A DNA stretch of 64,000 nucleotides from Patescibacteria group bacterium (GCA_049325535.1 JBMOKY010000001.1:1074118-1138117); one strand, 5' to 3'; shown: positions 11,660 through 51,030, counted from the first letter of the stretch. A program made the numbers and translations. The notes: generated from the letters alone by a model not told the origin.

Positions 11660-11722
11660 GATACCAGTGTAGCATATTCTGCGGTGGTCTGGCGCACCAA
11701 CCCATGCTACAATAAGCCCACT

Positions 11723-25224: not shown

Positions 25225-25416
25225 ATGAATAATATGTTTGTTATTCCGCTTAAATAATTGCCCCAGTATACCTGCATCAGGGAGGATTGTCAAAGCTCGG
25301 AAAAACGCGCATATGCCCAAGGGCTCAAGTACGCGCAATGCGCCTTGTATCTTCATGGTAATTTACTTTTTTGCTATTTTGTGATATAATAAATCGCGTT
25401 AGTAAATAAAAAAACC

Positions 25417-29689: not shown

Positions 29690-29809
29690 CTGCTGCCCGC
29701 TGATTTGACATTTTGCCAAAAAGTGTGTATACTCATGGCATCTATTGACAAAAATCAATAAATACGATATATTGCATTATCCTAAAAAACGAAAGGGGGT
29801 GACAAAACA

Positions 29810-30163
29810 ATGAAAAAATTAATTTCTCTCGTCGCGCTGGTTGCCGTGTTGGCACTCCCGGCCGTTGCTTCAGCTCAGGTCAATATCAATGACAATTTAG
29901 GTTCAACCTTTGGTCTTGGTACCGCTGACCTGGAAAATACCGTGATCAATGTCGTTCAGTGGGTACTCGGATTCCTCGGCTTGATCGCTGTTATCATGAT
30001 TTTAATCGGTGGCTTCCAGTGGATTACTGCTGGTGGTAATGAAGAAAAAGTTGCTTCAGCCAAGAAAGTCATCTCAGCCGCCGTTATTGGTTTAATCATC
30101 GTCCTGCTCGCCTGGGCTATCGTCATCTTCGTGGTCTCTCAGACCAACGATCTGACCAACTAG
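29810..30163 (+). CDS. T4SS-type pilin-like protein (paralog 3, canonical about 117 aa)
   Basis: Signal peptide MKKLISLVALVAVLALPAVASAQ, then IMILIGGFQWITAGGNEEKVASAKKVISAAVIGLIIVLLAWAI. It is preceded by a well-spaced promoter-like AT-rich region and followed by a terminator. Confidence 0.7.
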   Translation: MKKLISLVALVAVLALPAVASAQVNINDNLGSTFGLGTADLENTVINVVQWVLGFLGLIAVIMILIGGFQWITAGGNEEKVASAKKVISAAVIGLIIVLLAWAIVIFVVSQTNDLTN

Positions 30164-30190: not shown

Positions 30191-30227
30191 CGACCCAGCC
30201 TCTCGTAAGGGGCTGGGTTTGTTTTTA
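30191..30227 (+). terminator. Rho-independent terminator after pilin paralog 3
   Basis: The cccagcc-tctcgtaag-ggctggg stem-loop is followed by tttgttttt. Confidence 0.55.
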
Positions 30228-30258: not shown

Positions 30259-32259
30259 ATGTATCTCTGGCTACAGCAATTCCGCAACCGCCATGACACG
30301 CGTGCCCTCCTGACTATCGGCGCAGGTATTATTTGCTTTGTCGCGATTATCACCACTCTCGGACTGTATAAATATGCCAGTTTCGCGTATGACGCGATCG
30401 ACCTGGGCATCTATAGCCAGGTTTTTTATAATTCCGCACACGGCGATCTCTTTAGTTTCAGCATCCACCCACATAATTATCTGGGTGATCACTTTGAATT
30501 ATTCATTTTGGCTCTGCTGCCGATGTATCGGCTGTTTCAGCATCCCGTTGCCCTCATCGTGCTGCAGGCCATCGGACTGGGCTTGGGCGCCTGGCCGCTC
30601 TACCTGATCGCACGACGCTGGCTCCCACGACACTGGAGCCTGGGTATCACGGGCGCCTACCTGCTCAATCCGGTCGTCTGGAACATGGCGCTCTTCGAAT
30701 TCCATATATTACCTTTCGCCATTCCACTCATACTGGCGATGTATTACACATACCTGACAAACCGCCTCGGGTGGTTCTGGGTCTGGAGCCTCGTCGCACT
30801 GACCATACGCGAAGACGTATCGCTGGTGCTGATGGGGTTTGGCATCCTCGGGCTGATCGAAAAGCGACGCTGGACATGGGCTCTGCCCCCGCTGCTGGCA
30901 GGTGGTGTTTGGCTGATTGGCGCCACGCACCTGAGCGGTTATTTCAATGGATCGGATACATACAAATTCATCGCACTGTATTCCTGGCTGGGAGACTCGC
31001 TGCCCGACATGATCACCACCGTACTGACTCGTCCCTGGGTCGTGCTGCTGCACCTGCTCCGACCGGACAACTGGCTGCTGATGCTGGGACTATCGCTTCC
31101 CCTCGCCGGACTGCCACTCCTGCGCTGGAAATACTGGATACCGACCAGTTTCATCACCGTACAATTGTTCCTCACCAGCATCAGTGCCACTATCGTCCTG
31201 CAGACGCACTACGCGGCGCTGCTGATCCCCTCGGTCTGCGTAGCGGCCATCGCTGTACTCCAGCCCATCGCCGCGGGCATACCAATCCGCCACCGCGTCC
31301 TGAACCGGCTAGCACACTATCGCCAGTGGGTGGCTATCGTCGGAAGCGTGGCGGTCATTTACAGCTTCGTCACCTTTAGTCCCGCTAGCGCTCTATTTTC
31401 CCGTCCGAGCTATACTGCGGAAATTCCCGCCACCATAAGCGAAAAAAATGTTATTCTCGGGGCACTGCCCGAAAAGGCGGCTGTCGTCTCTGGTTTTGAT
31501 ACCCTCGCTGAGCTGAGCAGCCGCACCAAGCTGTACTCGCTGCACTACGGATTTTTGGGAGTGCGTCAGTTTAGCGCTACGCCATACGCTATCCCATCAC
31601 CAGTTGACCATGTCATCATGGATACCACTGATTTCGTCATCTTCCAGCTCCAATCCCAGACCATCTCCAGCTACCATGCCCAGTACACGACTGGGGCAGA
31701 ACGCCTGCGTAAACTAGTGGCCGATAATAATTTACACATAGCGAAAATCATGGACAGCGTCGTCTGGTTCAGCGCAGCTGCAGCCCGGCCGATAACCCCC
31801 GTAGCCACGGATGCGCTGCCGGGCGCCGATGCCATTATACTCGACGCACCCATTGATGAAGCGCTCTCGCTGGTCGCCTGGGAACGGTTACCGAGCGAAC
31901 AAGTGGTTCCCGAAACAACCATCGTGCCGATCCAGCTGTCCTGGTATACCAATCAACCGGTCACCACTGATTATACACTGGCGCTGACCGTACGTTCCGA
32001 TACGGGTGCGTTAGTATACAAAAAATTCTACCCGGTCGGATACGGGCTCTGGCCCACCAGCTCATGGCAACCGCAGCGACCGGTGCAAAGCAGCTATTGG
32101 TTTGCACTGCCTGATACTGTCCTCAAACCGCGCTACACCGTTTCGCTACAGGTTGTCTCGCTCACCGGCTACATGACGCTCGACGCGCTCCGGTCCACCC
32201 AGATGCACATCTCCAGCGAACGGTCATTCGGGCCGTCTATTCAGATTGTCGCGGAGTGA
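30259..32259 (+). CDS. DUF2079-family polytopic membrane protein with a large C-terminal extracytoplasmic domain (GT-C-like)
   Basis: N-terminal block YDAIDLGIYSQVFYNSAHGDLFSFSIHPHNYLGDHFELFILALLP and about 11 TM, then an approximately 300-aa soluble C-terminal region. Confidence 0.55.
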   Translation: MYLWLQQFRNRHDTRALLTIGAGIICFVAIITTLGLYKYASFAYDAIDLGIYSQVFYNSAHGDLFSFSIHPHNYLGDHFELFILALLPMYRLFQHPVALIVLQAIGLGLGAWPLYLIARRWLPRHWSLGITGAYLLNPVVWNMALFEFHILPFAIPLILAMYYTYLTNRLGWFWVWSLVALTIREDVSLVLMGFGILGLIEKRRWTWALPPLLAGGVWLIGATHLSGYFNGSDTYKFIALYSWLGDSLPDMITTVLTRPWVVLLHLLRPDNWLLMLGLSLPLAGLPLLRWKYWIPTSFITVQLFLTSISATIVLQTHYAALLIPSVCVAAIAVLQPIAAGIPIRHRVLNRLAHYRQWVAIVGSVAVIYSFVTFSPASALFSRPSYTAEIPATISEKNVILGALPEKAAVVSGFDTLAELSSRTKLYSLHYGFLGVRQFSATPYAIPSPVDHVIMDTTDFVIFQLQSQTISSYHAQYTTGAERLRKLVADNNLHIAKIMDSVVWFSAAAARPITPVATDALPGADAIILDAPIDEALSLVAWERLPSEQVVPETTIVPIQLSWYTNQPVTTDYTLALTVRSDTGALVYKKFYPVGYGLWPTSSWQPQRPVQSSYWFALPDTVLKPRYTVSLQVVSLTGYMTLDALRSTQMHISSERSFGPSIQIVAE

Positions 32260-33880
32260 CCGAATAAATGACGACGTGCGGCGTGCGGTGTGCTTCACGG
32301 AGATAGGGTTTCGTGCTCGGATCAAAGGATCCGAGTTCCTTTTCTTTGCGGCCGTACCAGACATACGTCACACGTCCGTCGCGGAGCAATTGCTCTTTTT
32401 CCGGGGGGTCAGCATCATCTGACCAAAATGCCTCACTGTCCTCAAATTTATATGGGAGGTCGATTGTCTGCGGGCCATGGCCGATCCACACTACCCGTCC
32501 ACTGTACGCCGGAATATAATTGCCCATATAGTAGCTGGAAAAAATCACGTCGGTATAATCCGTATGGTCACGCAGCCAATGCATGGCATCAACCTCATCC
32601 TGCATCAGGTAGTACGGCAGATCGTGTTTGGTGGTAAAAAGGAAAAAATCCTGCCCGAGTACCTGCAGATTGGACAGCGGCAAGAAAATTATTAGGCCCA
32701 TGACACCGGCGGTGGCCCATATGCCTCCGCGTTGCCTCAGCCGAGACCAGCACCACCAGACGCCAAAAAATGCCAGTAGGACCAGGGGTATCTGTACCCC
32801 TTCGGACATCCTCCGCTGGAACGATACCGGCACATACATCAGCACCAGAGTAACTAAAAACCACACGACCAAAAAAACACGGCTGGACTGCTGATCTTTG
32901 ATGATGCGCCAGATTCCCACTAGCGCCAGTGGCAGGAGCAATCCAAACCCGATCATATACATCCACAGGCTGGGCGAAGGCAGTATATTTTGCGCGGACC
33001 AATTTCGGATGACCCAATCCCGCTGCGCCAGAAGCCATAAATACAGCACCGGCGGCAGCGTACCCATGCCCAGTACCACATAATGCTGGATCCACTTCCA
33101 GTGAATACGTTTTGTGTGTACAAACCGCACGAGCATATAGACCAACAGCACGACAAACACCGTCGGGCCATTGAACGGGTGAAACCATACCAGAAAAAAA
33201 CTGCTCACCGCGGCGCCGATGCTGTACCGCCACCGGTTGGTGTCAAACGCCCGCAGCATGCAATACAGTGTCAACACGAGAAGCGTCAGCGATGCGAGCA
33301 AATGAGGGGAGTGGAGCGCCGACAGAAAATTGACACTTTCTGCAATCCAGATGTCCGTCGGGTGCTCATAGATGTTATTCACATCAAATAAAAACGGATT
33401 AAAAAATACACCTAAACCGGAAGCAAACAGAAGCATGGCTAGTGCCCAGCGTCGAGCACGCGCATTCGTAATGAAATATGACAAAAACCGATAGAGCACA
33501 AAAACAAAAATAACGATCCAGATTGACCGAGCGATATGCAAAGCCAGTAAATTTGAAATACCGTCTTTCTTGGTGAGCCACCCGACGGACAGCCAGAGTG
33601 GATTGATAAAAGCTCGCGCCTGTTCTTCGTGCGTGTACAGATTGATAAAGACATTTTCCCCTTGCCTGACCTGCTCGATCATGGAAAGAAATACATTGGT
33701 GTCCCCCGGGGCCAGGTGATGCAGACCGGTAAAGACGGTGCCGGCAGGACGGGTCACATACCCATAGAGGAAAGGCGCGGCAGTAAGCAGCACGAGAACC
33801 AGGGCCATGCCAAGCGGAAATATCCACTCACGATGCCGTGTTTTAGACGTTGAATTTTTTTTCGTATGTATAGGTTCCAT
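32237..33880 (-). CDS. Polytopic membrane protein, GT-C-fold glycosyltransferase-like (YfhO/ArnT-like architecture)
   Basis: Roughly 13 TM plus a C-terminal soluble domain. No nucleotide-binding motifs are seen. Confidence 0.5.
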   Translation of the reverse strand: MEPIHTKKNSTSKTRHREWIFPLGMALVLVLLTAAPFLYGYVTRPAGTVFTGLHHLAPGDTNVFLSMIEQVRQGENVFINLYTHEEQARAFINPLWLSVGWLTKKDGISNLLALHIARSIWIVIFVFVLYRFLSYFITNARARRWALAMLLFASGLGVFFNPFLFDVNNIYEHPTDIWIAESVNFLSALHSPHLLASLTLLVLTLYCMLRAFDTNRWRYSIGAAVSSFFLVWFHPFNGPTVFVVLLVYMLVRFVHTKRIHWKWIQHYVVLGMGTLPPVLYLWLLAQRDWVIRNWSAQNILPSPSLWMYMIGFGLLLPLALVGIWRIIKDQQSSRVFLVVWFLVTLVLMYVPVSFQRRMSEGVQIPLVLLAFFGVWWCWSRLRQRGGIWATAGVMGLIIFLPLSNLQVLGQDFFLFTTKHDLPYYLMQDEVDAMHWLRDHTDYTDVIFSSYYMGNYIPAYSGRVVWIGHGPQTIDLPYKFEDSEAFWSDDADPPEKEQLLRDGRVTYVWYGRKEKELGSFDPSTKPYLREAHRTPHVVIYSVTPRQSE

Positions 33881-34000
33881 AAAACATGATGCCCGATCGG
33901 GATGGAGTTAGTATATCACACCCCGAGCTCAATAGTTGGAACGTGGCGCAAAGGACTTATTCCATATATACTGACTATGATCATATACTATTGTCCGCGT

Positions 34001-35302
34001 ATGGCATTTATCAAACAGAGCATGTACACGCTTATTACGCGTGGGATCCAGGTTATCAGCGCCTTTATCGTAACAATCGTCGTGGCGCAAACGCTCGGAA
34101 CGCTCGGAACGGGGACCTATGAGCTGTTCCAACTGCTGGTCACCTTTTCAGTAACGCTGGGTGCATTTGGCATCGGACACGCGAGCGTCTATCTCATTAA
34201 AAAAGAAAAGGCTGACATGCGCGAAACCCTCTCAACGGTATTCACCGTTGGGCTGGTCTGGGGCATCATACTGGGGGGCTTGGTGTATATATTTTACACT
34301 GTATTTCCCTCGCTGGTCGCTGGGCTGCCCCCATCGGCTATTCTGATTGGCGCAGCGCTCATCCCCTGCGCACTCATCGAATCCTATCTCATACAGGCGC
34401 TGCTCATTGAATTTTACATGCAAAAACAGGCGCTGTTGGTCGGGTTTAAAAACGGCTGTCTGCTCGTCTGCCTGGTGCTGGCCCTGCTGATATTTGACGC
34501 GGGAACAACCGGCGTCATATATTCGGTCGTCATCGCCTATATCCTAAGTTCCCTGATGACTACTACTGCGATCTGGCGGCTATATCGGCTGCGACTTCAA
34601 TTCTCCCGAGCGGTGTTTAATCGACTGCTCTCATTTGGTGTGCGGTCATGGCTCGCAAATATTTTCCTGATACTCAATTTCCGGCTCGACATGTTTCTCG
34701 TTAATCACTTCGCTGATATTCATGCTGTCGGCAGTTACTCGGTGGCGGTCACCGTAGCGGGGGGCTTATTTCTTCTGCCCAGCGCCATCGGTCCCTTATT
34801 GTATTCACGGTGGTCAGCCATGCCCCCTAAAAAAATCGCCGCCGAAACACCACAATTGAGCCGCCAAATACTTTTACTCAGCACCATCCTGGCATTAATA
34901 CTTGCGGCATATGGTCGCACGATCCTGTCGATTGTATATGGAAACTCTTTTATCGATGCATTTCCGGCCTTGGTCATACTCCTACCAGGGATCGTTATGA
35001 CGTCCATTAACTATGTGCTTTTTAATAGTTTGGCCGCGCTCGGCAAGCCGGGGTTAAACGCCATATCACTTATCGTTGGTTTGGTTATAAATATAGCCCT
35101 CAACATCGTTCTGATCCCTTATGGAGGAATCGTCGGTGCAGCGCTGGCAAGTACAGTCTCATATACGCTCACCACGCTCATCACGATTGCCTTTGTGCTG
35201 CGCTATCACCCCGGGCACGCATCACGAAATTTTATATTTCCTACACTATCTGATACTCTTATATTGGCAAAACGCTTAAAACAATTAGTGTCTCACTCAT
35301 AA
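34001..35302 (+). CDS. Polysaccharide/oligosaccharide flippase (Wzx-like, MOP superfamily)
   Basis: About 12-14 TM and an N-terminus of the usual Wzx form (two-helix start, G-rich TM1). It is translationally coupled to the downstream acetyltransferase. Confidence 0.65.
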   Translation: MAFIKQSMYTLITRGIQVISAFIVTIVVAQTLGTLGTGTYELFQLLVTFSVTLGAFGIGHASVYLIKKEKADMRETLSTVFTVGLVWGIILGGLVYIFYTVFPSLVAGLPPSAILIGAALIPCALIESYLIQALLIEFYMQKQALLVGFKNGCLLVCLVLALLIFDAGTTGVIYSVVIAYILSSLMTTTAIWRLYRLRLQFSRAVFNRLLSFGVRSWLANIFLILNFRLDMFLVNHFADIHAVGSYSVAVTVAGGLFLLPSAIGPLLYSRWSAMPPKKIAAETPQLSRQILLLSTILALILAAYGRTILSIVYGNSFIDAFPALVILLPGIVMTSINYVLFNSLAALGKPGLNAISLIVGLVINIALNIVLIPYGGIVGAALASTVSYTLTTLITIAFVLRYHPGHASRNFIFPTLSDTLILAKRLKQLVSHS

Positions 35303-35303
35303 T

Positions 35304-35795
35304 ATGCTTTTCTCGTGGTACAAAAAAACATCAAGCATTCCCCTGCTCATACTCAATGGCATTGTGCAGCGGATTTTCATGTTGAACGGCCGGTCGCGCT
35401 GGATGGTGCACTATACGTCCCGCGTGATATGCCCGCAAAAAATAACCATGGGCGCACATGTCGAGCGGAGTTTTGCGCGCAGTGGCGGGTGTTATATCCA
35501 GGCATTAAATGGCATTACCTTTGGTGATGATGTGCTGTTCGGGCCGGGAGTAAAAATCATTTCTGGCAATCATGGATTTGTCGCCCGTCATGCGATTACC
35601 GTCGCGCCCCCTATCCGCATCGGTAGCCGAGTATGGATTGGGGCCAATGCGATCATTCTGCCGGGCGTAGAAATCGGCGACGATTCGATTGTTGGCGCGG
35701 GAAGTGTCGTCACCCACTCGTTCCCCGAACATTCAGTCATCGCCGGCAACCCCGCCCGGCTGCTCCGCCACAACGATAGTGCGCACCAAACATGA
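35304..35795 (+). CDS. Hexapeptide-repeat (left-handed beta-helix) acetyltransferase
   Basis: Imperfect [LIV]-G-x-x-x-x hexapeptide repeats are present (IGSRVWIGANAIILPGVEIGDDSIVGAGSVV). Confidence 0.7.
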   Translation: MLFSWYKKTSSIPLLILNGIVQRIFMLNGRSRWMVHYTSRVICPQKITMGAHVERSFARSGGCYIQALNGITFGDDVLFGPGVKIISGNHGFVARHAITVAPPIRIGSRVWIGANAIILPGVEIGDDSIVGAGSVVTHSFPEHSVIAGNPARLLRHNDSAHQT

Positions 35796-37042
35796 GCCAA
35801 TCAGCATCCTCCACTCCTACCAAACGTATCCTGATACTGAGCGCTCTCGACATATGGTCAATGCGCGGTAATGCGGGCGCTCCGTCATTATTCCGCACAC
35901 TGACCGCCCTATCGAATCGATATACTCTTACCTTTATTACCGGCCACGCACAGACACCTTCGGGTCAAGACGAGAAGCTCAATGGAGTGCGCGTCATACG
36001 TTTTGGGATACCGTGGCTACAAAGTATGTTTGAACCACATCATGCTTTTTCAAATATTGGGAAAATTGTTTTTCCTATTTGGTGGCTGATATTCCAGCTC
36101 TGGGCCTACCGGCTCGTCTCTCGCGAAATTCGCCGTTCCGACTTCGACGCCCTCTACGCATATGAAATACTGGCTGTGCCGGTCATGGCCCGGTTAGCGC
36201 GGCGGCATCATATACCATTCATCGTTCGATTCCAGGGAACGGTACTGGCGCCGCTGCTTTCCAAACCGCTCTCCCGCGTGACCCATTTCCACCATTATTG
36301 CGCATTTCGAACAAGAGCGGACATGATTATCATGACAAATGACGGCACACAGGGAGATCGCGTACTCCGCAGCCTGCGCAACACCTCGCCACGCCAGTTC
36401 TTCTGGATGAATGGCGTCGACCGTTACCCCGATTCTCCTCCGTCCGACATTACCGCTCTGAAAAAACGGCTGGGGATCAGCGAGCGCGATATTTTCATCT
36501 TGGCAATCAGTCGGCTCAAACGGTGGAAACGTATAGACCGATGTATCGAAGCGATCATGCGACTCGATGACCCCCGTGTCCATCTCGCCATCATCGGTGA
36601 TGGTCCTGAACGAGCATCACTTGAGGCATTCGCACGACGGGGTTGCGCCTCCCCGCGCATACACATACATTTTGTTGGCAGTATGCCGCATGATGCGCTC
36701 GGTGCATACTACCAGGCAGCGGACATATTTATCTCGTGCTATAGTCTCTCAAATGTCGGCAACCCCCTGCTTGAGGCGATGCGCATGACAAAGCCCATCC
36801 TCACGCTCGATAATGGCGGTACTGCGCAGGTCATAACGCATGAAAAAACCGGTCTCCTCGCCCCAGAAGGCGATCCCGCGGCGCTCTGCGCCATGCTGAA
36901 ACGATTAGTCAACGACGCGCCGCTGCGACGCCAACTAGGAGAGGCGGCGCAGATCTATGCTGACACGCATTTTGATACATGGCACCAGCGCATGGACCGG
37001 GAATACGCGGCTATTACCGAGCTCCTGAACCAGCGCCCGTAG
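35792..37042 (+). CDS. Glycosyltransferase family 4 (GT-B)
   Basis: C-terminal E-x7-E-like region (GNPLLEAMRMTKPILTLDNGG) and the overall GT4 layout. Confidence 0.75.
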   Translation: MSQSASSTPTKRILILSALDIWSMRGNAGAPSLFRTLTALSNRYTLTFITGHAQTPSGQDEKLNGVRVIRFGIPWLQSMFEPHHAFSNIGKIVFPIWWLIFQLWAYRLVSREIRRSDFDALYAYEILAVPVMARLARRHHIPFIVRFQGTVLAPLLSKPLSRVTHFHHYCAFRTRADMIIMTNDGTQGDRVLRSLRNTSPRQFFWMNGVDRYPDSPPSDITALKKRLGISERDIFILAISRLKRWKRIDRCIEAIMRLDDPRVHLAIIGDGPERASLEAFARRGCASPRIHIHFVGSMPHDALGAYYQAADIFISCYSLSNVGNPLLEAMRMTKPILTLDNGGTAQVITHEKTGLLAPEGDPAALCAMLKRLVNDAPLRRQLGEAAQIYADTHFDTWHQRMDREYAAITELLNQRP

Positions 37043-38201
37043 CCTGAATATATACGTCGCGCAACTGCTGCGTCAGGCGCGCCGGATCCAGTTGCCGGCG
37101 AATCACGTCACGAGCCCGCTGACCGATAGCCTGCGCACGGGAATAGTCAGCACAGAGATACTCAAGCGCTGCTACCAATTCATTGCCCGCCTGAGATGAA
37201 ATAACCATGCCGGTTTCTTTGTCATGAATCATATCTGCCATGCCGCAGGTACGGGTAACTACCACTGGTCGAGCGCTGGCCATGCCCTCGACAGCGCTCA
37301 CACCAAACCCCTCCTGTTGGGATGGCAGCACTACTATATCCGCATGCTGAAAATATGATCTGAGGTTTTGGTGTGGTACGCTTCCCTGCAGAGTGACACG
37401 ACGGGACAGCCCGTACTGAACGATAAGTCGCACAATCCGCTGATATTCATTTCCGTCTCCGACCAACGTAAGATGAGCGGTAGGGTGCTGATTTAAAAAA
37501 GGCCGGATCGATTCAATGAGCCAGGGTATATTTTTCACGGGTATGAGCCGCCCCACCCAGAGCACCGCCCCCGTCTGCGGATACTCGTGCGACACGTCAA
37601 ATAAAGCGGGCAGCTCCGGCACCATGTCAGGAATCACCGTGGCCGATGCAATACTGCTGATGTCACGCTGTGCCTGCTGTATGAGGCGGGGACTCACGGA
37701 GATAACATGATCTACGCGGCGGACAACCCAGCGTGCAATCCGGCGCAGGAGTGGGTGCGATACTGCAAATTGTACGTCAGTACCATGAAGCGTCATCACA
37801 ATCGGCCGATGTTGCCACATCCGCGCGAGCAGGGCAACAGCAGCAGCCGGCCACCAATGCGCATGTACTATATCACTCTGTGATGCCCATCGTATCACGG
37901 ACAAGACAAATGCCATGATAAAAAAAGGCGCCTGCACCTTTGATAACCACGATCGACGGATATTCTCGATCAGACCGTCACCATACGCCACAGCATGCTG
38001 ACGATCGCTATACCAGTACCGAAACCGGCGGATCACAACGCCATCATACGTTTCAGTAGGATGCGCCCCCGGAGCAAATGGCGCAATGACCGTTACCGAT
38101 AAGCCTGCCAAGACTAGTTGCCGAGCCTGTTCATGGATAAATATCCCCGCGGTATCACCGGCGAAGCGAGGATAGGAACTGGTCACCACAAGGACGCGCA
38201 T
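37014..38201 (-). CDS. Glycosyltransferase family 4 (GT-B)
   Basis: MRVLVVTSSYP...EGFGVSAVEGMASARPVVVTRTCGMADMI matches the GT4 EX7E motif. Its 3' end overlaps the convergent GT4 by 29 nt. Confidence 0.8.
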   Translation of the reverse strand: MRVLVVTSSYPRFAGDTAGIFIHEQARQLVLAGLSVTVIAPFAPGAHPTETYDGVVIRRFRYWYSDRQHAVAYGDGLIENIRRSWLSKVQAPFFIMAFVLSVIRWASQSDIVHAHWWPAAAVALLARMWQHRPIVMTLHGTDVQFAVSHPLLRRIARWVVRRVDHVISVSPRLIQQAQRDISSIASATVIPDMVPELPALFDVSHEYPQTGAVLWVGRLIPVKNIPWLIESIRPFLNQHPTAHLTLVGDGNEYQRIVRLIVQYGLSRRVTLQGSVPHQNLRSYFQHADIVVLPSQQEGFGVSAVEGMASARPVVVTRTCGMADMIHDKETGMVISSQAGNELVAALEYLCADYSRAQAIGQRARDVIRRQLDPARLTQQLRDVYIQATGAGSGAR

Positions 38202-38204
38202 ACA

Positions 38205-39155
38205 TTACTGCTGCAAATCCTTATTCGACTCCATATCAAACCACATAGCGAAAAACAACGACTGCGTGCCAAATAGAAAAAAGAGGGCGGCAAACAATGC
38301 GCTGGTTTCTGACACCGGCCCGGTTACAATCCGGTACATCAGCAGATACAGTCCAAACACAAACCCAACAATAAAAGACATGAATCCAAAAAAATAGAAA
38401 AAGACGAGCGGGTGGAAATCCCGCACTACGTACTTCTCCCGCATCCGCCAGAAAAAATCTTTTACCAATAACCAGCTAATTCGGGGGACAACGTGAGCGA
38501 TGCGAATACCTGATTTTTCTCCCTGGTAAATCGGCTTGATCGGTACCTCATGTACACGAGCATTCAACACATTCAATTTAACCAACAGATCATTCGGGAA
38601 GCCATACCGTCGATACAATTTTCGTAACGGTATGGTCCGGGCCGCTTCCCGGCTGATGGCGGTATACCCCGTCTGAAAATCAGACAGCTTCCAGTAGCCC
38701 GAGGCGATTTTCGTCAGCAGTGAAAGGATAGCGTTGCCGATAAATCGATACCGGGGCATAACCTCCCATGCCGTTCCATAGTGAAATCGGTTTCCTTTGA
38801 CATAATCAGCTGCGCCGTCGATGACGGGCTGCACCACCGTGGCCAGCTCAGCCGGATCCATCTGCGCGTCACCAGCCATGACGGCCAGCACATCGTCGCC
38901 GGCAGAGATACCGAGCTCATACCCGGTGACGATGGCTGCGCCGACGCCGCGATTACTATCATGGCGGTGCACCGTTACTGTGGTCGTGCCGACCGGGGCC
39001 GTACTCCGTGCTCGATCGCCAGTCCCGTCGGTGCTAGAGTCATCGATGACATATATGTGATCCACAAATGCCGGCATGGTACTGATAACCGCACCAATCC
39101 GTTCCGCTTCCTGAAAAGCCGGGATGACAACGCCAATTTTTTTATTATGTAGCAT
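38205..39155 (-). CDS. GT2 glycosyltransferase with C-terminal TM helices (polyprenyl-phosphate mannose/glucose synthase-like, Dpm1/GtrB type)
   Basis: IGVVIPAFQEAERIG...VIDDSSTDGT (GT-A DxD region) plus two C-terminal TM helices. Confidence 0.75.
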   Translation of the reverse strand: MLHNKKIGVVIPAFQEAERIGAVISTMPAFVDHIYVIDDSSTDGTGDRARSTAPVGTTTVTVHRHDSNRGVGAAIVTGYELGISAGDDVLAVMAGDAQMDPAELATVVQPVIDGAADYVKGNRFHYGTAWEVMPRYRFIGNAILSLLTKIASGYWKLSDFQTGYTAISREAARTIPLRKLYRRYGFPNDLLVKLNVLNARVHEVPIKPIYQGEKSGIRIAHVVPRISWLLVKDFFWRMREKYVVRDFHPLVFFYFFGFMSFIVGFVFGLYLLMYRIVTGPVSETSALFAALFFLFGTQSLFFAMWFDMESNKDLQQ

Positions 39156-39158
39156 AGA

Positions 39159-40607
39159 CTACGATGAGTGGGGCATGACTCTACCGGGCCATTTTTTCCC
39201 CATGATTGTATTCCATTGTACCATGAGGAAATAAAGTGCAACACTGACGCCAAAGAGCACATTCGGGAAGAAAACGCTCAGGCTGGCATAGTACATAAAA
39301 CCATAGAGAGTCGTCAATATGATCAGCGGCCGATAGTGCCGCTCGGGGACCAGCAGTGCCAATGGCACAAACCACAGGGTATACCAAACATTAAACTTCC
39401 CTCCCAATAAAAACAAGAACACCAATAACACCCAAAACCACCGCTTGATAAATGTATCAACCAGTGTCTCACTCCGCCGGAAAAGAAGCATGATATACAC
39501 CACGAGGAAGGTCAATAAATAGCTGGCGCGCTGGGTCACCAGATCAAAATGAAATCCTGGAATCACCCCATCCAACCACGACATGAGAGCGTAGAGCATA
39601 CTCTGGGGAAGCGTCAGATTATTATCAGTGACAAAAGCGCGGCCCAAATTGCCAATATTACGGTCAAAATTGTGCAGCGGTGCATAGGTTGCCAGCACCA
39701 TGCCGGTCACAATCAAGGCTCCGAGACCGATCGTCCGCCAGGCCTGGCGACGGGGCAAACGCAATGCCAGGAGCGCCACAAACGGCAATAAAATAATCGG
39801 GCCGAATTTGATGAGAAACGCGCCAGTGAGAAAGGTCGCCGCCCAGAGATAGCGAGTGCGAATCACCGCATACACTGCCGCCAGGACAAGCGTCATCATA
39901 AAGACGTCATTATGCGCCGAGTGAACCGCCTCGAACAGTATAAAAGGATTCCAGGCAAAAAGCGCGGTGACCGCATATCGACTCTGGGGTATGACACGCT
40001 CGGCGATTTTGTATACCAGCCATACGCACAGTAAAAATGCGGCGGCAGCGACCAGCCGATAGCCTATCAGGTTTGCTACCACATCCCCGCCGATGAGGCG
40101 GGACAGCAGCAAGGAGTAATTCATAAATAAGGGCCCATACACCGACACCTGTTCCGGCCAAGCTACCACCCCGCTATAGCCGAGCGCTGCGGGGGATATT
40201 TGGTATGGATTTGCATCGTGGGTATTGGCAATGACAGCCCGAGAGATATAGCCGTACACATCCGAAGAAAAAAATGGTGGGCTTAAAAATAAAATGCATA
40301 TGAATATGCAGACAAAGAAAATAACAATGGCGAGAGTCCGTGAATCATGTGCCAATTTCGCACCCTTCCACAAAAATAAAATATATACACCCAAAAACGC
40401 AAATAGAAAAAACGCGACCATTCCCAGGTGAGTAAAGAATACCCCGGCATGCCGCATCAGCGGTTTCGTTTCCTCCGGAGAACTAGAAATGACCATCAGG
40501 GTAAAGGCAAAAAAGAACGCGGCAAACAGGGTGCCCCACTGCCACAGGCGGCGATAGCGCTCATCGCGGGCCGAACTGAAAAAATTTGCAATTGTTGCCA
40601 ACATCAT
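39159..40607 (-). CDS. GT-C-fold membrane glycosyltransferase-like protein (DUF2029/GT87-like)
   Basis: About 12 TM with short loops. Translationally coupled within the operon. Confidence 0.5.
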   Translation of the reverse strand: MMLATIANFFSSARDERYRRLWQWGTLFAAFFFAFTLMVISSSPEETKPLMRHAGVFFTHLGMVAFFLFAFLGVYILFLWKGAKLAHDSRTLAIVIFFVCIFICILFLSPPFFSSDVYGYISRAVIANTHDANPYQISPAALGYSGVVAWPEQVSVYGPLFMNYSLLLSRLIGGDVVANLIGYRLVAAAAFLLCVWLVYKIAERVIPQSRYAVTALFAWNPFILFEAVHSAHNDVFMMTLVLAAVYAVIRTRYLWAATFLTGAFLIKFGPIILLPFVALLALRLPRRQAWRTIGLGALIVTGMVLATYAPLHNFDRNIGNLGRAFVTDNNLTLPQSMLYALMSWLDGVIPGFHFDLVTQRASYLLTFLVVYIMLLFRRSETLVDTFIKRWFWVLLVFLFLLGGKFNVWYTLWFVPLALLVPERHYRPLIILTTLYGFMYYASLSVFFPNVLFGVSVALYFLMVQWNTIMGKKWPGRVMPHSS

Positions 40608-40609
40608 AA

Positions 40610-41836
40610 TTATTTGAGCTGGTGGTTTACCCTGAGCGCATCATCAACGGAACTGTTCATCCGGATCAAATACAAAGTATAGATAATAAGTACCGTACAC
40701 AGGATGATGACCGCTGAAATAGCGGCGTACCCAAATGACTGCGGCCCCCACACCTGCCAGATCAATGGAAACGACGCATAATTAAGTATATCATACACCA
40801 CCACCAGCCATATCAAGCGTTTGTCCGCCACCAGGATGATAAGTGGCACGGCCCAGATGATCCACTGAGGTGAATAAAACCGCGAGCAGAGGGTAAAAAT
40901 GAGCACGCCGAGCGCCATCCAGCCAGCCAGCTGCGCCGGCGTGGTGAGATACCGCATCAGCACCCGGGGCTGTATGAGCGCCACCAGCGGCAATGAGAAT
41001 TGCAGCAGCAGGAATATCGTCAGACCAAGGTAATTCAGCTGTTCAATCCCGGTCGAGAGCAACGGCCCCTGCACGAACAGATAATACAGGCTACCCACGC
41101 CTCCCGGACGCGCTCCGTGAAAAAAATACGGCCTGAGCGAAGTAAATCCGTCAAAAACAAAAGACAGTGCCAAAAAGCCGATGACGACGGCAGCGCCATA
41201 CCCCAGGAACTGCCGCTGGGATGATCGAGCCATGACACCTTCGGTCTGCCGGATATACAGATACATCAGCGGCACAAAAATAACCGGATACCATTTGGTG
41301 AGTATGGCGATGGCAAAGACGATGGCGGCCATACGCCAGCGCCGCGATAGTACCAGCCACAGGCCAATCTGTACCCCAAGCGCCACCAACACGTCAAAAC
41401 GATTCATACCAAAATACAGTAACGACGGCAGCGCCAGAAGCAGCACCAACCACGGCGACCGCTGCAATCTTCGCAAGAGTCGCACGGTGACATAGACGAG
41501 GCCAAGGTACACCGCCAGATTCATGATGATAAATACCGTGCGATATGTATCATAGCCACCGGTAAAGATATACGGGAGGGTGATATACCCCAGTCCAATC
41601 TGCGGATACTCCTGAAAAATGCTGGCATCATAGGGAGTGACCCCCTGGGTGACCCAGCTGCCGCGATCATGAAATACGCTGATCTCATGGTCATCCCGCA
41701 GCAAGCGAGCCCGCGTCCCTTCGCTGAGCCAGTCAGTGGCGACAAAATCCGGAGCAAATAGCACAAATGTGCCGGCGGCCCCGACGATGATCATGGCCAG
41801 CCACATTGCCCATCGGGATGAAACCAATCTCATCAT
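40610..41836 (-). CDS. GT-C-fold membrane glycosyltransferase-like protein (DUF2029/GT87-like)
   Basis: About 11 TM. Translationally coupled to both neighbours. Confidence 0.5.
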   Translation of the reverse strand: MMRLVSSRWAMWLAMIIVGAAGTFVLFAPDFVATDWLSEGTRARLLRDDHEISVFHDRGSWVTQGVTPYDASIFQEYPQIGLGYITLPYIFTGGYDTYRTVFIIMNLAVYLGLVYVTVRLLRRLQRSPWLVLLLALPSLLYFGMNRFDVLVALGVQIGLWLVLSRRWRMAAIVFAIAILTKWYPVIFVPLMYLYIRQTEGVMARSSQRQFLGYGAAVVIGFLALSFVFDGFTSLRPYFFHGARPGGVGSLYYLFVQGPLLSTGIEQLNYLGLTIFLLLQFSLPLVALIQPRVLMRYLTTPAQLAGWMALGVLIFTLCSRFYSPQWIIWAVPLIILVADKRLIWLVVVYDILNYASFPLIWQVWGPQSFGYAAISAVIILCTVLIIYTLYLIRMNSSVDDALRVNHQLK

Positions 41837-43449
41837 AGCGATTGGGGCAATACCTCATAAATCGAAGCTTCGTCGTCACGATACGCACGGCGCAAACCAT
41901 TCGATTCCTCAGCCATGCGTTCCATGGCATGATGTGACGACTCAATAAAGACATACCGAGCATGAAACGTATCCCGGATCAGCTCATACCCCTTGTCCGT
42001 ATCCTTTCCGGTCGTGATGTCTACGATATGCCGATACAATTCCGGGCTGTATTCATAGGTAAAAGTCGGGTCCAGTCCGCTGATATAATAGGTGGACGGG
42101 CTTCGAAAAAAAAGTATAGGGAATTCGTCCCAGCTGGAATGGAATACGATATCCCCTGGCTGGGCATGGGTAGACAGCCATTGGCCGGCGCCGGCAAACC
42201 TCGTGACGGGTATGCCACCCATATAATCACTGCGGAGACGGACGAGATCCTTCGCCACGACCGCCGGAACGCCAACGGCAAAGTACACCACCAGTATAGT
42301 GGTGACCACCGAGTACCGGGTCGCGAACTGCCATACTGCTTTCCCTATGTCGCCCATGGTCTGCCGGCGTAATACGTGCTGCACTGTAAAGGCGATCCAG
42401 GTGACTGTGACTGGAATATAATACTCCACATACCGCCGTGATTTCAGGGTAAATGCCAAATAAAAAATAAAAAGTAAAAACAGCGCCAATTGCTTTCGGG
42501 AGTACGTCCGGTACAGGCCCATCAGTATGGCGGCCAATACGGCTAACACCGTGACTAAGACCGACTGGGTCCATAAATCAAATAGTTTATACGGGTACCA
42601 CTCCCCACCCACCGGGATGACCGTCTGATAGTTGACCACCCCGATTTGCACCAATTGCTGCCAATAAAACTGCAGGTTGGTGGGGAAATGCGGGTTGATG
42701 ATGATGCCCGCTAGGGTGCCTGCAAGCACGATCGCCATCATGCGGAGCTCCCGACTGTGTGAAATCACCAGCCAAAAAGAACGGCGCACATCCCGAAACC
42801 AATCGAGACCGATGCTCACCAGCGCATACGCACCGGCGGCGATGGGCAATACAATAAACCCCCCATACGCCCAGACAAACGCCCCGGAGATAAAAAGCAG
42901 GGTCAGGTACCGATACCGGAACAAGGCGTACAATCCACCAAATAAAAAGAGCAGGGAAACTACCGGCGCCTTGACCAGATTCAGCCGAAACATAAACGGC
43001 GTGGTCACCAGCAGCAGCACGGTAAACCAAAATGCAAACGGCACCCGGTGACGCCTGAAGAGGCTGTACATCAGGACGATCAGCGCAGTATTGAGCATGA
43101 CCTGGACAAATTTCGCCCCCAGAATCGGATCGGCAAATTCCGTAAATGGGATCAACAATACATGGTAGAGAAAATGCTGATTGATATATGCATCCTTCAG
43201 CGTCGATACTTGGAGCCAGGGGAATTCAGTGATGACGCCATGTTCCACGATACTGCGCGACATCTGGATATGGTAAAACGAATCCGGATCAGGAAATGTG
43301 GAAATCGTCTGAACATAGGTAAAAAGCGACAGGCTCATGATGATGACAAGCAGATACGACACATACCACCATTGGCGCCTCATCCATCCTAAAATTGTAC
43401 TGAGTCTGTTCATAATGACGAAAGGGTACCAATAGTCTCCGCCAAGCAT
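41833..43449 (-). CDS. Large GT-C-A type membrane protein (about 13 TM plus a roughly 140-aa C-terminal extracytoplasmic domain; STT3/ArnT/PMT-like architecture)
   Basis: The first external loop has FPDPDSFYH (a D-x-D-type acidic motif). The C-terminal domain after the last TM contains HSSWDEFP. Confidence 0.5.
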   Translation of the reverse strand: MLGGDYWYPFVIMNRLSTILGWMRRQWWYVSYLLVIIMSLSLFTYVQTISTFPDPDSFYHIQMSRSIVEHGVITEFPWLQVSTLKDAYINQHFLYHVLLIPFTEFADPILGAKFVQVMLNTALIVLMYSLFRRHRVPFAFWFTVLLLVTTPFMFRLNLVKAPVVSLLFLFGGLYALFRYRYLTLLFISGAFVWAYGGFIVLPIAAGAYALVSIGLDWFRDVRRSFWLVISHSRELRMMAIVLAGTLAGIIINPHFPTNLQFYWQQLVQIGVVNYQTVIPVGGEWYPYKLFDLWTQSVLVTVLAVLAAILMGLYRTYSRKQLALFLLFIFYLAFTLKSRRYVEYYIPVTVTWIAFTVQHVLRRQTMGDIGKAVWQFATRYSVVTTILVVYFAVGVPAVVAKDLVRLRSDYMGGIPVTRFAGAGQWLSTHAQPGDIVFHSSWDEFPILFFRSPSTYYISGLDPTFTYEYSPELYRHIVDITTGKDTDKGYELIRDTFHARYVFIESSHHAMERMAEESNGLRRAYRDDEASIYEVLPQSL

Positions 43450-43504: not shown

Positions 43505-44572
43505 CTACCGTAATTGTTTTTTAAAATAATCAACAACCGGTATCGGAGATGGATCCACACCATTGAGGATGCCCAGATAGAAACTAACATAACTGGACAA
43601 TAACAATAATTCCACTATCTGTTGTAAATCACCGGCTCCGCGGGTCTGATATGTCATTGCGTTGATGCCGGCCCTCCGCAGCACTCGCTCAGTTATGATA
43701 AAACGTTTCCGATTACGCTGATGGTATTGAGAAGATTGTAGCAAAATAAAAGCAAGGGTGCGCGGATTAGTCCGGGGAAAGGGCAGCCCCTCCATCAGGT
43801 GATGATTCATTTCGGAAATGAGAAAATAGTTGGCAAAGGACTTTCCATTTTCATTTATTTGATTAGCCATAATATGCGCATTGCCCGCTAAATGCTCAGC
43901 GGCAATAACAACCCCTTGGCGACCATGGAGGTACGAAGCGATTTTTTTTGCTTGGTTGCGGGTAGTGGGCACCGCGACACCAAATTGCTTGTGCAAAACG
44001 ATGATATGCCGGATGGCAGCATTGAATTCAGCATTGGCAATATGTACAAATCCAGCCTGCTGCAACAACGACAAAACGCCAATCAAAGAATACCCCAGCC
44101 CCATCCGCGGCTGATTTGAGGGGTTGAACCGGGGGTCAAAAATATAGGCGGGAATGTGGTGCTGTTTCGCCTGCGCCGCCAGCACACCGCCCGCGCCAAT
44201 CAACAGTATCTTGTTTGTCCGCTTTCGGGCTTCCGTAAGCGAAGCGGTCACCTCTTCAGTCGTCCCCGAATAGCTGGAACAAATAGCCAGCGTATGCCGA
44301 TCGACGAAGCGAGGCACGCGGTATTGATTAGTCACGATAAATGGGACTGCGAGCCGAGCTTGAAATGCGTGACGCACCACGTCCGCTCCCAGCGCTGAGC
44401 CGCCCATACCATTGAACCATATTGTGCGCGCTGAGCGGTACGCGGCCGGGATGCGAATCGTGGAAACATCATCACGCGCCTGCTGGCACTGCAGCGCCAA
44501 GGATTCAATTGATCCGATCATCCCTTGCTGGTCAAGTTTTTTTATGGCTTTAAAATTATCGAGACGATGCAT
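43505..44572 (-). CDS. Bifunctional phosphoglucose/phosphomannose isomerase (SIS-domain, archaeal-type PGI/PMI)
   Basis: Two SIS-like segments (FNGMGGSALGADV..., ICSSYSGTTEE) and length typical of the bifunctional PGI/PMI family. Confidence 0.7.
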   Translation of the reverse strand: MHRLDNFKAIKKLDQQGMIGSIESLALQCQQARDDVSTIRIPAAYRSARTIWFNGMGGSALGADVVRHAFQARLAVPFIVTNQYRVPRFVDRHTLAICSSYSGTTEEVTASLTEARKRTNKILLIGAGGVLAAQAKQHHIPAYIFDPRFNPSNQPRMGLGYSLIGVLSLLQQAGFVHIANAEFNAAIRHIIVLHKQFGVAVPTTRNQAKKIASYLHGRQGVVIAAEHLAGNAHIMANQINENGKSFANYFLISEMNHHLMEGLPFPRTNPRTLAFILLQSSQYHQRNRKRFIITERVLRRAGINAMTYQTRGAGDLQQIVELLLLSSYVSFYLGILNGVDPSPIPVVDYFKKQLR

Positions 44573-48577: not shown

Positions 48578-48586
48578 CACGATACT

Positions 48587-49969: not shown

Positions 49970-49970
49970 C

Positions 49971-50984: not shown

Positions 50985-51030
50985 AGTCGGTTGTCCTGAT
51001 GCGCATCTAACGCATTGAACGCTGCCCATC

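Follow-up and report, generated by a model that had tools for sequence, protein, structure and literature searches.

In Pseudomonas aeruginosa, the GT-C enzyme TfpW glycosylates a pilin whose gene neighbors its own (bioRxiv 10.1101/2020.04.19.049825). The gene for TfpW (and for TfpO/PilO) lies beside pilA, the pilin is decorated outside the membrane by a GT-C enzyme drawing on a polyprenyl-phosphate sugar, and the glycan varies among strains. The three-component systems GtrA/GtrB/GtrC and CsbB/GtcA/YfhO use a GT2 protein with C-terminal transmembrane (TM) helices to make the polyprenyl-phosphate sugar for an outer-face GT-C. In the mycobacterial and corynebacterial PIM-LM-LAM pathway, labor is divided among GT4 enzymes inside (PimA/PimB), a GT2 synthase (Ppm1), and GT87-type GT-Cs outside (PimE/MptA/MptB). 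The pgl/agl enzymes STT3/AglB/PglB (CAZy GT66) join a GT-C membrane domain to a C-terminal domain and carry acidic residues in the first external loop. Finally, the available text of a report on Patescibacteria describes tandem arrays of divergent PF18895 pilin genes in 383 assemblies, and in that text we found no link of the VirB2-like array to GalU, a solute-binding protein (SBP), or GT-Cs (PMC12102498).

The window considered here, i.e., the whole 64-kb stretch of DNA that was analyzed, comes from a Kerfeldbacteria-like Patescibacterium. We conclude that it very probably contains a locus for extracytoplasmic glycosylation by GT-C enzymes, with a variable cassette inside it, and the region is best explained as a cell-surface glycosylation locus conserved within a lineage, the Kerfeldbacteria/Uhrbacteria-type Patescibacteria. 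Our preferred reading, to which we assign a probability of roughly 0.45, is that this variable locus assembles a surface glycan by means of polyprenyl-phosphate sugars and is coupled in evolution to the adjacent pilin array, whose proteins are the candidate acceptor.

All 11 ORFs that the initial annotation had placed in the glycosylation island are present where it had placed them, with the abutting or overlapping junctions that it had described (35302/35304, 35792/35795, 38201/38205, 39155/39159, 40607/40610, and 41833/41836). Families were assigned from Pfam and NCBIfam profiles, which bear out the identities proposed for the Wzx, acetyltransferase, two GT4, membrane-anchored GT2, PGI/PMI, and DUF2079 genes. 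The conserved frame opens with a GalU-like UTP-glucose-1-phosphate uridylyltransferase (25417..26295, plus strand; NTP_transferase; TIGR01099 galU, 319 bits versus a cut-off of 326.8), which keeps its position in related loci. The next gene encodes a membrane-anchored sugar-type SBP (26292..27677, plus strand; Pfam SBP_bac_1) with one N-terminal TM segment; it adjoins the pilin array in relatives too and is an orphan, with no adjacent permease gene. The variable cassette of the window includes a Wzx/MOP-type flippase (33902..35302, plus strand; Polysacc_synt and Polysacc_synt_3 at 42.7 and 44.2 bits, both exceeding their cut-offs) with 14 hydrophobic segments, where about 12 to 14 are expected of Wzx/MOP. 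By family profiles, the cassette also encodes a WbbJ/WcaF-like hexapeptide-repeat sugar O-acetyltransferase (35304..35795, plus strand) and two cytoplasmic GT4 glycosyltransferases, a (35792..37042, plus strand) and b (37014..38201, minus strand). A bifunctional phosphoglucose/phosphomannose isomerase (PGI/PMI; 43505..44572, minus strand), likewise assigned by family profiles, forms the outer edge of the conserved frame. Neither a priming phosphoglycosyltransferase (PGT) nor a GtrA-type flippase gene was found in the island.

The initial annotation counted five GT-C proteins; two GT87 proteins qualify by family match and two unclassified proteins, P2 and P10, by confident models, whereas the fifth, DUF2079, has remote profile matches only. 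DUF2079 (30259..32259, plus strand; Pfam 156 bits) is a polytopic membrane protein with a TM domain of ~430 aa and a C-terminal domain of ~235 aa. It belongs to a family without known function that we did not find mentioned in the literature searched, and a PDB sequence search gave no match. Based on two remote hhalign matches, to P10 (probability 69%, E 4e-5) and to GT87a (69%), DUF2079 is probably a GT-C; the hhalign probabilities to P2 and GT87b are 12% and <1%. GT87a (39159..40607, minus strand), an MptA-MptB-like GT-C whose copy number differs among relatives, matches PF09594 (28.0 bits; cut-off 25), PMT_2, PF26314 (MptA_B_family on record), and TIGR03459 (E 2e-17), and it reaches 39.8 bits against the NCBIfam MptB cut-off of 40. 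GT87b (40610..41836, minus strand; PF09594, 38.7 bits; cut-off 25) is a GT87-like GT-C and a member of the conserved frame, and its profile matches GPI mannosyltransferase 1 at E 3e-4. Polyprenyl-phosphate-mannose may be the GT87/MptA-B donor, to which the presence of PGI/PMI in the locus is at most a circumstantial pointer. The GT2 protein (38205..39155, minus strand; PF00535, 67 bits), with C-terminal TM helices (segments at 250-304), resembles polyprenyl-phosphate hexose synthases of the AglJ/PpgS/GtrB type; its best full-length match is to AglJ/PpgS-type synthases (AglJ model residues 7-310, E 1e-26; PpgS, E 2e-16), at scores far under the equivalog cut-offs, and among PDB sequences it has no more than a weak match, to GpgS.

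P2 (32237..33880, minus strand) and P10 (41833..43449, minus strand) have no Pfam match even at E values up to 10, STT3 included, and no NCBIfam assignment. Their predicted structures show a confidently modeled polytopic membrane domain with the GT-C fold, followed by a globular AglB/STT3-type C-terminal domain homologous to that of Archaeoglobus fulgidus AglB. The P10 model is closest to the catalytic subunits of oligosaccharyltransferases (OSTs; STT3/AglB/PglB) and also resembles Pmt4. A sequence search of the PDB with the P10 profile gave no match at E values up to 10; P2, compared with OST sequences, matches the C-terminal domain of AglB-S2 only (E 0.004). D60 of P2 (34 sequences) and D54 and D56 of P10 (DPD; 32 sequences) never vary, and the models place them in the first external loop, right behind TM1. 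The WWDYG motif, which in OSTs binds the +2 Ser/Thr of the sequon, is lost in P2, where HMMER aligns SSYYMGN with SWWDYGN of AglB and only G-N is kept across the family. At the WWDYG position, P10 has HSSWDEFP, invariant in 32 sequences; transitive alignment and the helix starts in the models equate W440 with the second W and D441 with the D of WWDYG, although the register may be off by one residue, and the sequon-binding motif is only arguably kept in P10. NCBI labels a 526-aa version of P10 an “ArnT family glycosyltransferase.” One could still take the polytopic proteins for transporters or other membrane proteins that are not glycosyltransferases, and the cluster for something other than a glycosylation island, given that P2 and P10 lack Pfam and NCBIfam assignments and that the function of DUF2079 is not known. 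For P2, P10, and the two GT87 proteins, such a reassignment is effectively refuted, and for the cluster as a whole we regard it as hardly tenable. The logic of extracytoplasmic glycosylation seen by the initial annotation in the combination of a lipid-phosphate-sugar synthase, a flippase, and GT-Cs is backed by the families and by the two confident GT-C models.

Three PF18895 (VirB2-like “T4SS_pilin”) genes end directly 5' of DUF2079, so that the island does lie immediately downstream of pilin genes, as had been proposed; the array is ~30 kb from dnaA. The large array protein (27682..29253, plus strand) has a VirB2-like domain at its N terminus and, after it, eight Cys-rich “GCC...” repeats (50 Cys); its PF18895 match is weak (20.2 bits, under the cut-off of 26.6), and a lineage pilin HMM finds it at E 2.4e-18. 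The two small paralogues are pil2 (29288..29689, plus strand; PF18895, 28.6 bits) and pil3 (29810..30163, plus strand; 50.1 bits), both above the same cut-off. Each of the three proteins has 3 hydrophobic segments, where the T4SS pilin layout is a signal peptide plus two TM helices. The mature N terminus of pil2 carries a Ser/Thr/Gly-rich tail, 0 to 19 residues long among 16 aligned orthologues, ahead of a conserved LPNPLG motif. The best-conserved gene of the locus is pil3 (92% identity to the closest relative), and its product has a Thr-rich C-terminal tail in the orthologue alignment.

These pilins are not “sequon-rich,” as they had been called. The large one has 8 N-x-S/T sequons versus 5.8 expected from composition, its orthologues have 2 to 13 versus 1.8 to 8.3 expected with no consistent excess, and pil2 and pil3 have 0. 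Canonical N-glycosylation of N-x-S/T in the pilin-like proteins by an STT3/PglB-type OST, the strongest form of the initial idea, would suit the STT3/AglB-like architecture of P10 and P2 and the pgl-like logic of a Wzx, two GT4s, and an acetyltransferase. The sequon counts, the SSYYMGN of P2 in place of SWWDYGN, the lack of a Pfam STT3 match for P2 and P10, and the absence of a priming PGT nonetheless make it very improbable. The suggestion of an oligosaccharyltransferase-type system agrees with the structural kinship of P10 with STT3/AglB/PglB and disagrees with the sequon counts and with the WWD motif, lost in P2 and only arguably kept in P10.

How constant is the association between these enzymes and the pilins? 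The comparison covered 20 related loci with DNA present, plus the window. A frame of GalU, SBP, VirB2-like pilin array, and DUF2079 recurs in the 20 related loci, almost always along with a P2- or P10-type GT-C, and the array is beside DUF2079 in 20/20 of them (L026, L029, L030, and L031 included) as in the window; none of the 20 has a DUF2079 of the same subfamily without adjacent pilins. The initial annotation had held that a GT block present without the pilin genes in relatives would speak against the link, and instead the pairing persists throughout, even in L029, an Uhrbacteria contig with different flanks and three unassigned ORFs between array and DUF2079. In that same contig, GT2 is fused to a P2-type GT-C, which links the synthase of the lipid sugar to its presumed user, the GT-C. 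The fixed frame as a whole has two sides: GalU, the orphan SBP, the pilin array, DUF2079, and P2 make up one, and GT87b, P10, and PGI/PMI the other. The space between P2 and GT87b is taken by a cassette that varies from strain to strain; in the window, it holds the Wzx, O-acetyltransferase, two GT4, GT2, and GT87a genes. These genes, that for Wzx among them, are missing from most relatives; minimal loci pass directly from P2 to GT87b, and the cassettes of other loci carry instead PMT_2, methyltransferase, formyltransferase, DegT, or extra GT87 genes. The cassette therefore cannot be the pilins' conserved partner. In most relatives the shared synteny is wider and includes the housekeeping genes YebC, RuvC, and GlgA, so that part of the pilin-GT adjacency may be phylogenetic inertia.

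The same data bear on protein O-glycosylation of a general kind, comparable to actinobacterial Pmt/Ppm1 O-mannosylation or Neisseria pgl, in which many surface or secreted proteins would be substrates and the pilins at most a few of them. The likeness of P10 to OSTs and Pmt4, a GT2 of the polyprenyl-phosphate-sugar synthase type, and a variable glycan cassette, typical of such loci, are all consistent with it. A system of that kind, however, would have no need to stay strictly beside the pilin array in one relative after another, and we consider this explanation improbable.

We posit the array proteins as the leading, if tentative, candidate for the acceptor. In favor of the preferred reading as a whole are the enzyme families, the invariant first-loop Asp residues of P2 and P10, the fusion in L029, the array-DUF2079 synteny, the variability of the cassette, the variable-length Ser/Thr-rich tail of pil2 and the Thr-rich tail of pil3, and the precedent of TfpW. 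Other observations weigh against it. Two promoter-like sites with 11/12 matches (29705..29773, plus strand) lie upstream of pil3, and an intrinsic terminator-like hairpin with a 12-bp stem followed by TGTTTTTATT (30192..30219, plus strand) separates pil3 from DUF2079. A GC hairpin plus TTTGTTTTT stands at the equivalent position in 12/16 orthologous loci, with differing stem sequences; a strong terminator conserved there implies that the pilin genes are transcribed separately from the GT genes rather than in one operon with them. The wider synteny and the absence of a priming PGT or GtrA-type flippase in the island count against it as well, and Pfam found no VirB4, VirB6, VirD4, or other T4SS machinery among the scanned ORFs of the window. 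We know of no demonstrated case of glycosylation of a VirB2-type pilin. Of the dedicated pilin/surface-protein glycosylation system first proposed, the constant DUF2079-pilin adjacency stands, while the sequons, the terminator, and the changeable cassette tell against it.

A further difficulty for pilins as acceptors is that the locus has more glycosyltransferases than pilin decoration needs: they number five to ten, and several are MptA/MptB-like; such a count is typical of polymer or lipoglycan elongation. The main rival, and a possibility to be taken seriously, is a nonprotein surface glycopolymer, either a polysaccharide linked to the wall or a lipoglycan of the lipomannan/LAM type. In the cytoplasm, GT4s would act on a lipid anchor, Wzx would flip the product, and GT87/MptA-B-like and other GT-Cs would elongate it outside from polyprenyl-phosphate-hexose, the pilins being mere neighboring surface genes. 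The enzyme set suits such a polymer about equally well. Against it, DUF2079 keeps its pilin-array neighbor in L029 despite the loss of flanking synteny, and P10 has OSTs as its nearest structures and an AglB-type C-terminal domain that is absent from lipid-directed enzymes such as ArnT and PimE. We are aware of no lipoglycan described from Patescibacteria.

Based on the folds and family memberships described above, we infer the following steps. PGI/PMI and GalU would supply hexose phosphates and UDP-glucose, and the membrane-anchored GT2, working on the cytoplasmic side, would place a hexose on polyprenyl phosphate. A lipid-linked oligosaccharide would be made by the two GT4s and the acetyltransferase and flipped by Wzx. 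Outside, the glycan would be lengthened from polyprenyl-phosphate-hexose by the GT87-type enzymes and DUF2079, and the STT3/AglB-like P10 and/or P2 would hand a sugar or glycan to the final acceptor. Our best guess is that this acceptor would be the adjacent pilin-array proteins, O-linked on exposed Ser/Thr-rich termini and not at N-x-S/T sequons. In this model, the outcome would be a conserved pilin with a strain-variable sugar coat.

More specifically, we speculate that P10, and perhaps its paralogue P2, may belong to an unrecognized bacterial STT3/AglB-like branch that glycosylates the VirB2-like T4SS pilins of Patescibacteria on Ser/Thr-rich termini with a strain-variable glycan, a proposal that we rate as unlikely. 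If it were true, these would be the first glycosylated T4SS pilins, and the candidate phyla radiation would gain its first OST-like system for protein glycosylation; such a coat could set the host or phage specificity of Patescibacteria episymbionts. More broadly, a bacterium with a tiny genome retains a block of membrane sugar transferases beside its pilins, P2 and P10 are kin to the archaeal/eukaryotic protein-glycosylating enzyme, and the constant GT-pilin adjacency points to sugar-coating of a cell-surface structure.

The locus overlaps in part with each of the described systems. With STT3/AglB/PglB, P2 and P10 share the GT-C membrane domain, the AglB-homologous C-terminal domain, and the acidic first-loop residues, and the window shares GT4s, a hexapeptide acetyltransferase, and a flippase with pgl loci. 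P2 and P10 differ in lacking an STT3 sequence match and in the WWDYG motif (lost in P2, SWDEFP in P10); at the locus, no sequon signal, priming phosphoglycosyltransferase, or DK/MI motif was identified, and most relatives are without the Wzx/GT4 part. The division of labor is that of the PIM-LM-LAM pathway, with GT4s inside, a synthase, and GT87/MptA-B-like enzymes outside, but here the host is a Patescibacterium, no phosphatidylinositol anchor genes were identified, Wzx and STT3-like enzymes are present, and a VirB2-like array is linked. The GT2 with its C-terminal TM helices is like that of the three-component systems, from which the island differs by having no GtrA-type flippase gene and many GT-Cs instead of one. 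Compared with the Patescibacteria arrays in the available text of the report cited above (PMC12102498), the tandem divergent PF18895 array of the window is alike, with no T4SS gene such as virB4 among the window ORFs scanned. The acceptors of TfpW/TfpO are type IV pilins, not VirB2/TrbC-type pilins, and TfpW is a single enzyme versus four or more GT-Cs here; we liken the two by arrangement, in that a glycosyltransferase gene is conserved next to pilins.

The island is best read as a locus for extracytoplasmic glycosylation by GT-C enzymes, arranged around a variable cassette, and we put the probability of this reading at about 85%. Every open reading frame (ORF) that the initial annotation had claimed is present in the window exactly where it had been placed, the abutting and overlapping junctions are as described, and two additional convergent overlaps join DUF2079 to P2 (32237-32259) and GT4a to GT4b (37014-37042). 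Pfam and NCBIfam assignments bear out the gene content as well: DUF2079 (30259-32259), a Wzx/MOP-type flippase (33902-35302), a WbbJ/WcaF-like hexapeptide acetyltransferase (35304-35795), two GT4 enzymes (GT4a, 35792-37042; GT4b, 37014-38201), a GT2 enzyme (38205-39155), a GT87/PMT_2 protein with matches to the MptA/MptB models (GT87a, 39159-40607), a second GT87 protein (GT87b, 40610-41836), and a bifunctional PGI/PMI (43505-44572). The top full-length match of the GT2 enzyme is AglJ, an archaeal dolichyl-phosphate hexose synthase, followed by PpgS, a polyprenyl-phospho-GalNAc synthase, and hydrophobic helices occupy residues 250-304; among PDB sequences, it matched neither GtrB nor DPMS and found only glucosyl-3-phosphoglycerate synthase, weakly. 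Sequence searches of the PDB returned no match for GT87a or DUF2079. As listed, the divergent P2 and Wzx ORFs start 21 bp apart (33880-33902); the true Wzx start is probably an internal Met (MAFIKQ...) ~100 nt further downstream, a distance that would give promoters space between the two genes.

The GT-C proteins without an assigned family, P2 (32237-33880, minus strand) and P10 (41833-43449, minus strand), gave no meaningful match in Pfam or NCBIfam at E values up to 10. For both, homologues were gathered and aligned and structures were predicted (mean pLDDT, 94 for P2 and 92 for P10). Comparison of the P10 prediction with known structures gave scores of 22.2 for AglB, 21.6 for Pmt4, 21.0 for STT3B, and 19.1 for AftA. 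Foldseek was the better discriminating of the structure comparisons for P10: its best 15 solved structures were exclusively oligosaccharyltransferase (OST) catalytic subunits (human STT3A/B, yeast Stt3, AglB, and PglB; E of 5e-10 to 3e-7), with DPY19, ALG12, ArnT (4e-6), AftA (4e-3), and Pmt (>0.06) ranked below them. Against PDB sequences, neither the whole P10 profile nor its C-terminal domain alone found anything genuine at E values up to 10, and the matches of the C-terminal profile were dismissed as spurious. P2 has lost the WWDYG hallmark of OSTs, its SSYYMGN aligning with SWWDYGN of AglB; P10 has the invariant sequence HSSWDEFP at this position, and a transitive alignment and the helix starts of the models suggest that its W440-D441 arguably takes the place of the last two residues of WWD. 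Because sequence membership fails and P2 is without the WWD motif, P2 and P10 should not be classed as GT66. Based on the models, they look like two families, as yet unmodelled in Pfam and NCBIfam, that resemble a stripped-down STT3/AglB, having its architecture in common and probably working in a like manner. The similarity of P2 and P10 to GT-C and OST structures led us to reject the alternative that the polytopic proteins are transporters. Four of the five GT-C proteins proposed initially are solid, and the fifth, DUF2079, is probable, its profile matching P10 and GT87a at 69% probability; these five enzymes take up at least 13 kb of genome. Our literature search found no paper that mentions DUF2079.

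To what extent is this arrangement shared? About 25 related loci, among them those retrieved with the P2 alignment trimmed to closer sequences, were inspected, with orthologues mapped by BLAST and HMM. Named homologues are from records labelled 'Candidatus Kerfeldbacteria' or 'Patescibacteria group bacterium'; five public metagenome-assembled genome records (L010, L012, L016, L017, and L021), each with a Patescibacteria-type locus of unchanged gene order, are titled 'uncultured Gammaproteobacteria bacterium', taxonomic labels that look wrong. The recurrent frame consists of a GalU-like NTP-transferase, a membrane-anchored SBP_bac_1 protein, a large pilin-like protein, one to six small VirB2-like pilins, DUF2079, P2, a variable part, GT87b, P10, and PGI/PMI, followed in most loci by YebC, RuvC, GlgA, and GH57. 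The strain-specific insert of the window comprises Wzx, the acetyltransferase, GT4a, GT4b, GT2, and GT87a (33881-40609). Seven loci (L009, L011, L012, L014, L015, L016, and L024) have none of these six genes in the P2-GT87b interval; P2 and GT87b abut in six of them, and L009 has ~0.9 kb between the two. The Kerfeldbacteria chromosome CP181398 carries PMT_2, LPG_synthase_TM, methyltransferases, a formyltransferase, DegT, GT4, and GT2 at this site; some relatives have additional GT87 copies there, and L028 and L030 have ~10 glycosyltransferase genes. Base composition gives no hint of a foreign cassette (GC, 0.51-0.55 throughout). A 1,098-aa RND (AcrB/MMPL-like) transporter immediately upstream of the frame (22060-25356, minus strand) is probably outside the system and was dropped as a member, since relatives hold other genes there.

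Several features of the surroundings deserve mention in their own right. Downstream of the island lies a glycogen-type cluster (45891-53487) with two GlgA-like starch synthases (45891-47366 and 51031-52491), two GH57 genes, an APH-like kinase, and a GalT/HIT-like protein; the order of GlgA, both GH57 genes, and the kinase beside the island is kept in relatives, among which a second GlgA at the matching position occurs in L026 only. A sugar-activation/glycolysis block upstream (4643-10630) contains a second NTP-transferase, with MurU and mannose-1-P guanylyltransferase-like matches, a ROK kinase, an inositol-monophosphatase-family protein, PFK, and a PfkB kinase and could supply sugar nucleotides to the island. 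It is followed by a group of ORFs (10655-11659, minus strand; 11528-12985 and 14512-15405, plus strand) in which two sizeable ORFs have no Pfam family and a 297-aa protein carries a pair of cytochrome-b5-like haem/steroid-binding domains, an unusual feature in a reduced-genome bacterium. The 23S rRNA (1028-4302) matches over 3,068 nt versus a model of 2,925 positions and may carry an insertion; 5S follows it, and a split rRNA operon is possible, as neither a 16S rRNA nor a tRNA was found in the upstream 1 kb. At the other end, dnaN (58956-60056, minus strand), dnaA (60329-61690, minus strand), and yidC (62637-63437, plus strand), together with a cumulative GC skew minimum near 60 kb, place the replication origin inside the window, ~17-34 kb from the pilin array and island.

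In the window, three PF18895 'T4SS_pilin' (VirB2/TrbC-like) genes lie immediately upstream of DUF2079, and the proposed co-occurrence of pilins and glycosyltransferase block holds in relatives: a VirB2-like array sits beside DUF2079 not only in the window but also in each of the 20 relatives with DNA available beyond DUF2079. Since conservation extends to housekeeping neighbours, phylogenetic inertia could account for much of this adjacency. L029, a 'Candidatus Uhrbacteria' contig (JAFGIV010000005.1), speaks against inertia, since it has lost the YebC/RuvC/GlgA context and keeps SBP, GalU, SBP, six pilins, three unassigned ORFs, and DUF2079, the last convergent toward a P2-type gene as in the window. 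That gene (L029:12751-15075, minus strand) encodes a 774-aa protein in which a GT2 domain at the N terminus (25% identity to the GT2 enzyme of the window) is fused to a P2-type GT-C protein (P2 HMM over residues 243-773; E of 2.5e-144), independent evidence suggesting that P2 would use the product of such a GT2. Distant P2 homologues outside the clade (L006 and L025) have no pilins nearby, and the window ORFs scanned include no T4SS machinery.

Adjacency does not extend to a single pilin-to-DUF2079 operon, which is ruled out by a conserved terminator. The strongest terminator-like hairpin of the region (30192-30219; 12-bp stem plus T-run) lies 3' of the last pilin gene, pil3 (29810-30163), and the two best promoter-like sites are upstream of pil3. 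Of 16 orthologous loci, 12 (besides the window, L002, L003, L008-L012, L014-L016, L022, and L024) have a GC-rich hairpin plus TTTGTTTTT 3' of their last pilin gene; stem sequences differ among loci, so that structure, not sequence, is kept. A TACAAT-like box often follows the hairpin, shortly upstream of DUF2079. Based on these promoter-like sites before and the hairpin after it, pil3 would seem to form a monocistronic unit with high expression, and DUF2079 appears to be transcribed on its own or via read-through.

The large pilin-like protein (27682-29253; 523 aa) has an N-terminal pilin-like, VirB2-like membrane domain and, from ~28160, eight Cys-rich repeats beginning 'GCC', with 50 cysteines in total; the repeat region has no family match in Pfam, NCBIfam, or PDB. 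Its orthologues are only 31-59% identical, with 283-666 aa, four to nine repeats, and 30-70 cysteines. The pilins had been described as sequon rich. This did not hold: the large protein has 8 N-x-S/T sequons versus 5.8 expected, its orthologues have 2-13 versus 1.8-8.3 expected, and the small pilins have none, counts that led us to reject sequon-based N-glycosylation. In the orthologue alignment, the mature N terminus of pil2 (29288-29689) is a low-complexity Ser/Thr/Gly/Asn-rich tail of hypervariable length (0-19 residues; e.g., QSTNTGNTNTGATTTTGTPS in L015), directly followed by a conserved (S/T)LPNPLG motif, and pil3 has a C-terminal tail rich in Thr. Both termini of VirB2 proteins face outward. 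From composition and position, both tails would be plausible O-glycosylation sites.

How might these parts work together? Starting from the observed folds and family memberships, we infer the chemistry and the acceptor and posit, as the most economical scheme, that activated hexose would come from PGI/PMI and GalU, that GT2 would charge polyprenyl phosphate, and that the GT4 enzymes and the acetyltransferase would build a lipid-linked oligosaccharide to be flipped by Wzx. Outside, GT87a, GT87b, and DUF2079 would extend the glycan, and STT3/AglB-like P10 and/or P2 would carry out a transfer to the final acceptor. Our tentative choice of acceptor is the proteins of the pilin array, favoured because array and island are strictly adjacent, P10 and P2 have an OST-like architecture, the pilins bear tails, and TfpW, a GT-C protein encoded beside pilA, sets a precedent (bioRxiv 10.1101/2020.04.19.049825). 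Second in rank, and also possible, is a lipoglycan or wall polymer: the enzyme set mirrors its counterpart PimA/B, Ppm1, PimE, and MptA/B, and the island is without a priming phosphoglycosyltransferase. The remaining probability falls to broader protein glycosylation. Of the dedicated pilin/surface-protein glycosylation proposed initially, the extracytoplasmic GT-C logic and the array adjacency are supported, and sequon richness is not.

Patescibacteria, with genomes of ~1 Mb, live attached to other microbes; host recognition and the range of attacking phages are therefore probably set by their surface display. If P2 and P10 do modify the pilins, the essential, enigmatic CPR T4SS pilin arrays would gain a link with a variable glycan coat, and OST-like enzymes would be a wider group than now known; a lipoglycan would instead be a new envelope component for CPR. 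A recent Saccharibacteria pilus paper terms glycosylation in Patescibacteria 'unexplored' (PMC11623550), and our literature searches found no paper on CPR and GT-C enzymes or on Parcubacteria and protein glycosylation and no relevant one on Patescibacteria/CPR and oligosaccharyltransferase. A further study, focused on virB4 neighbourhoods, describes 441 Patescibacteria VirB2-like pilin arrays of 2-11 genes each, some essential, and T4SS genes near dnaA in some Patescibacteria (PMC12102498). The island itself is of a kind already known, namely, polyprenyl-phosphate-sugar/GT-C surface glycosylation with a hypervariable cassette, and its constant frame and hypervariable middle give it a layout similar to that of O-antigen and capsule loci. 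What is distinctive is that its coupling to a VirB2-like pilin array is conserved and that it contains two unmodelled STT3/AglB-like GT-C families.
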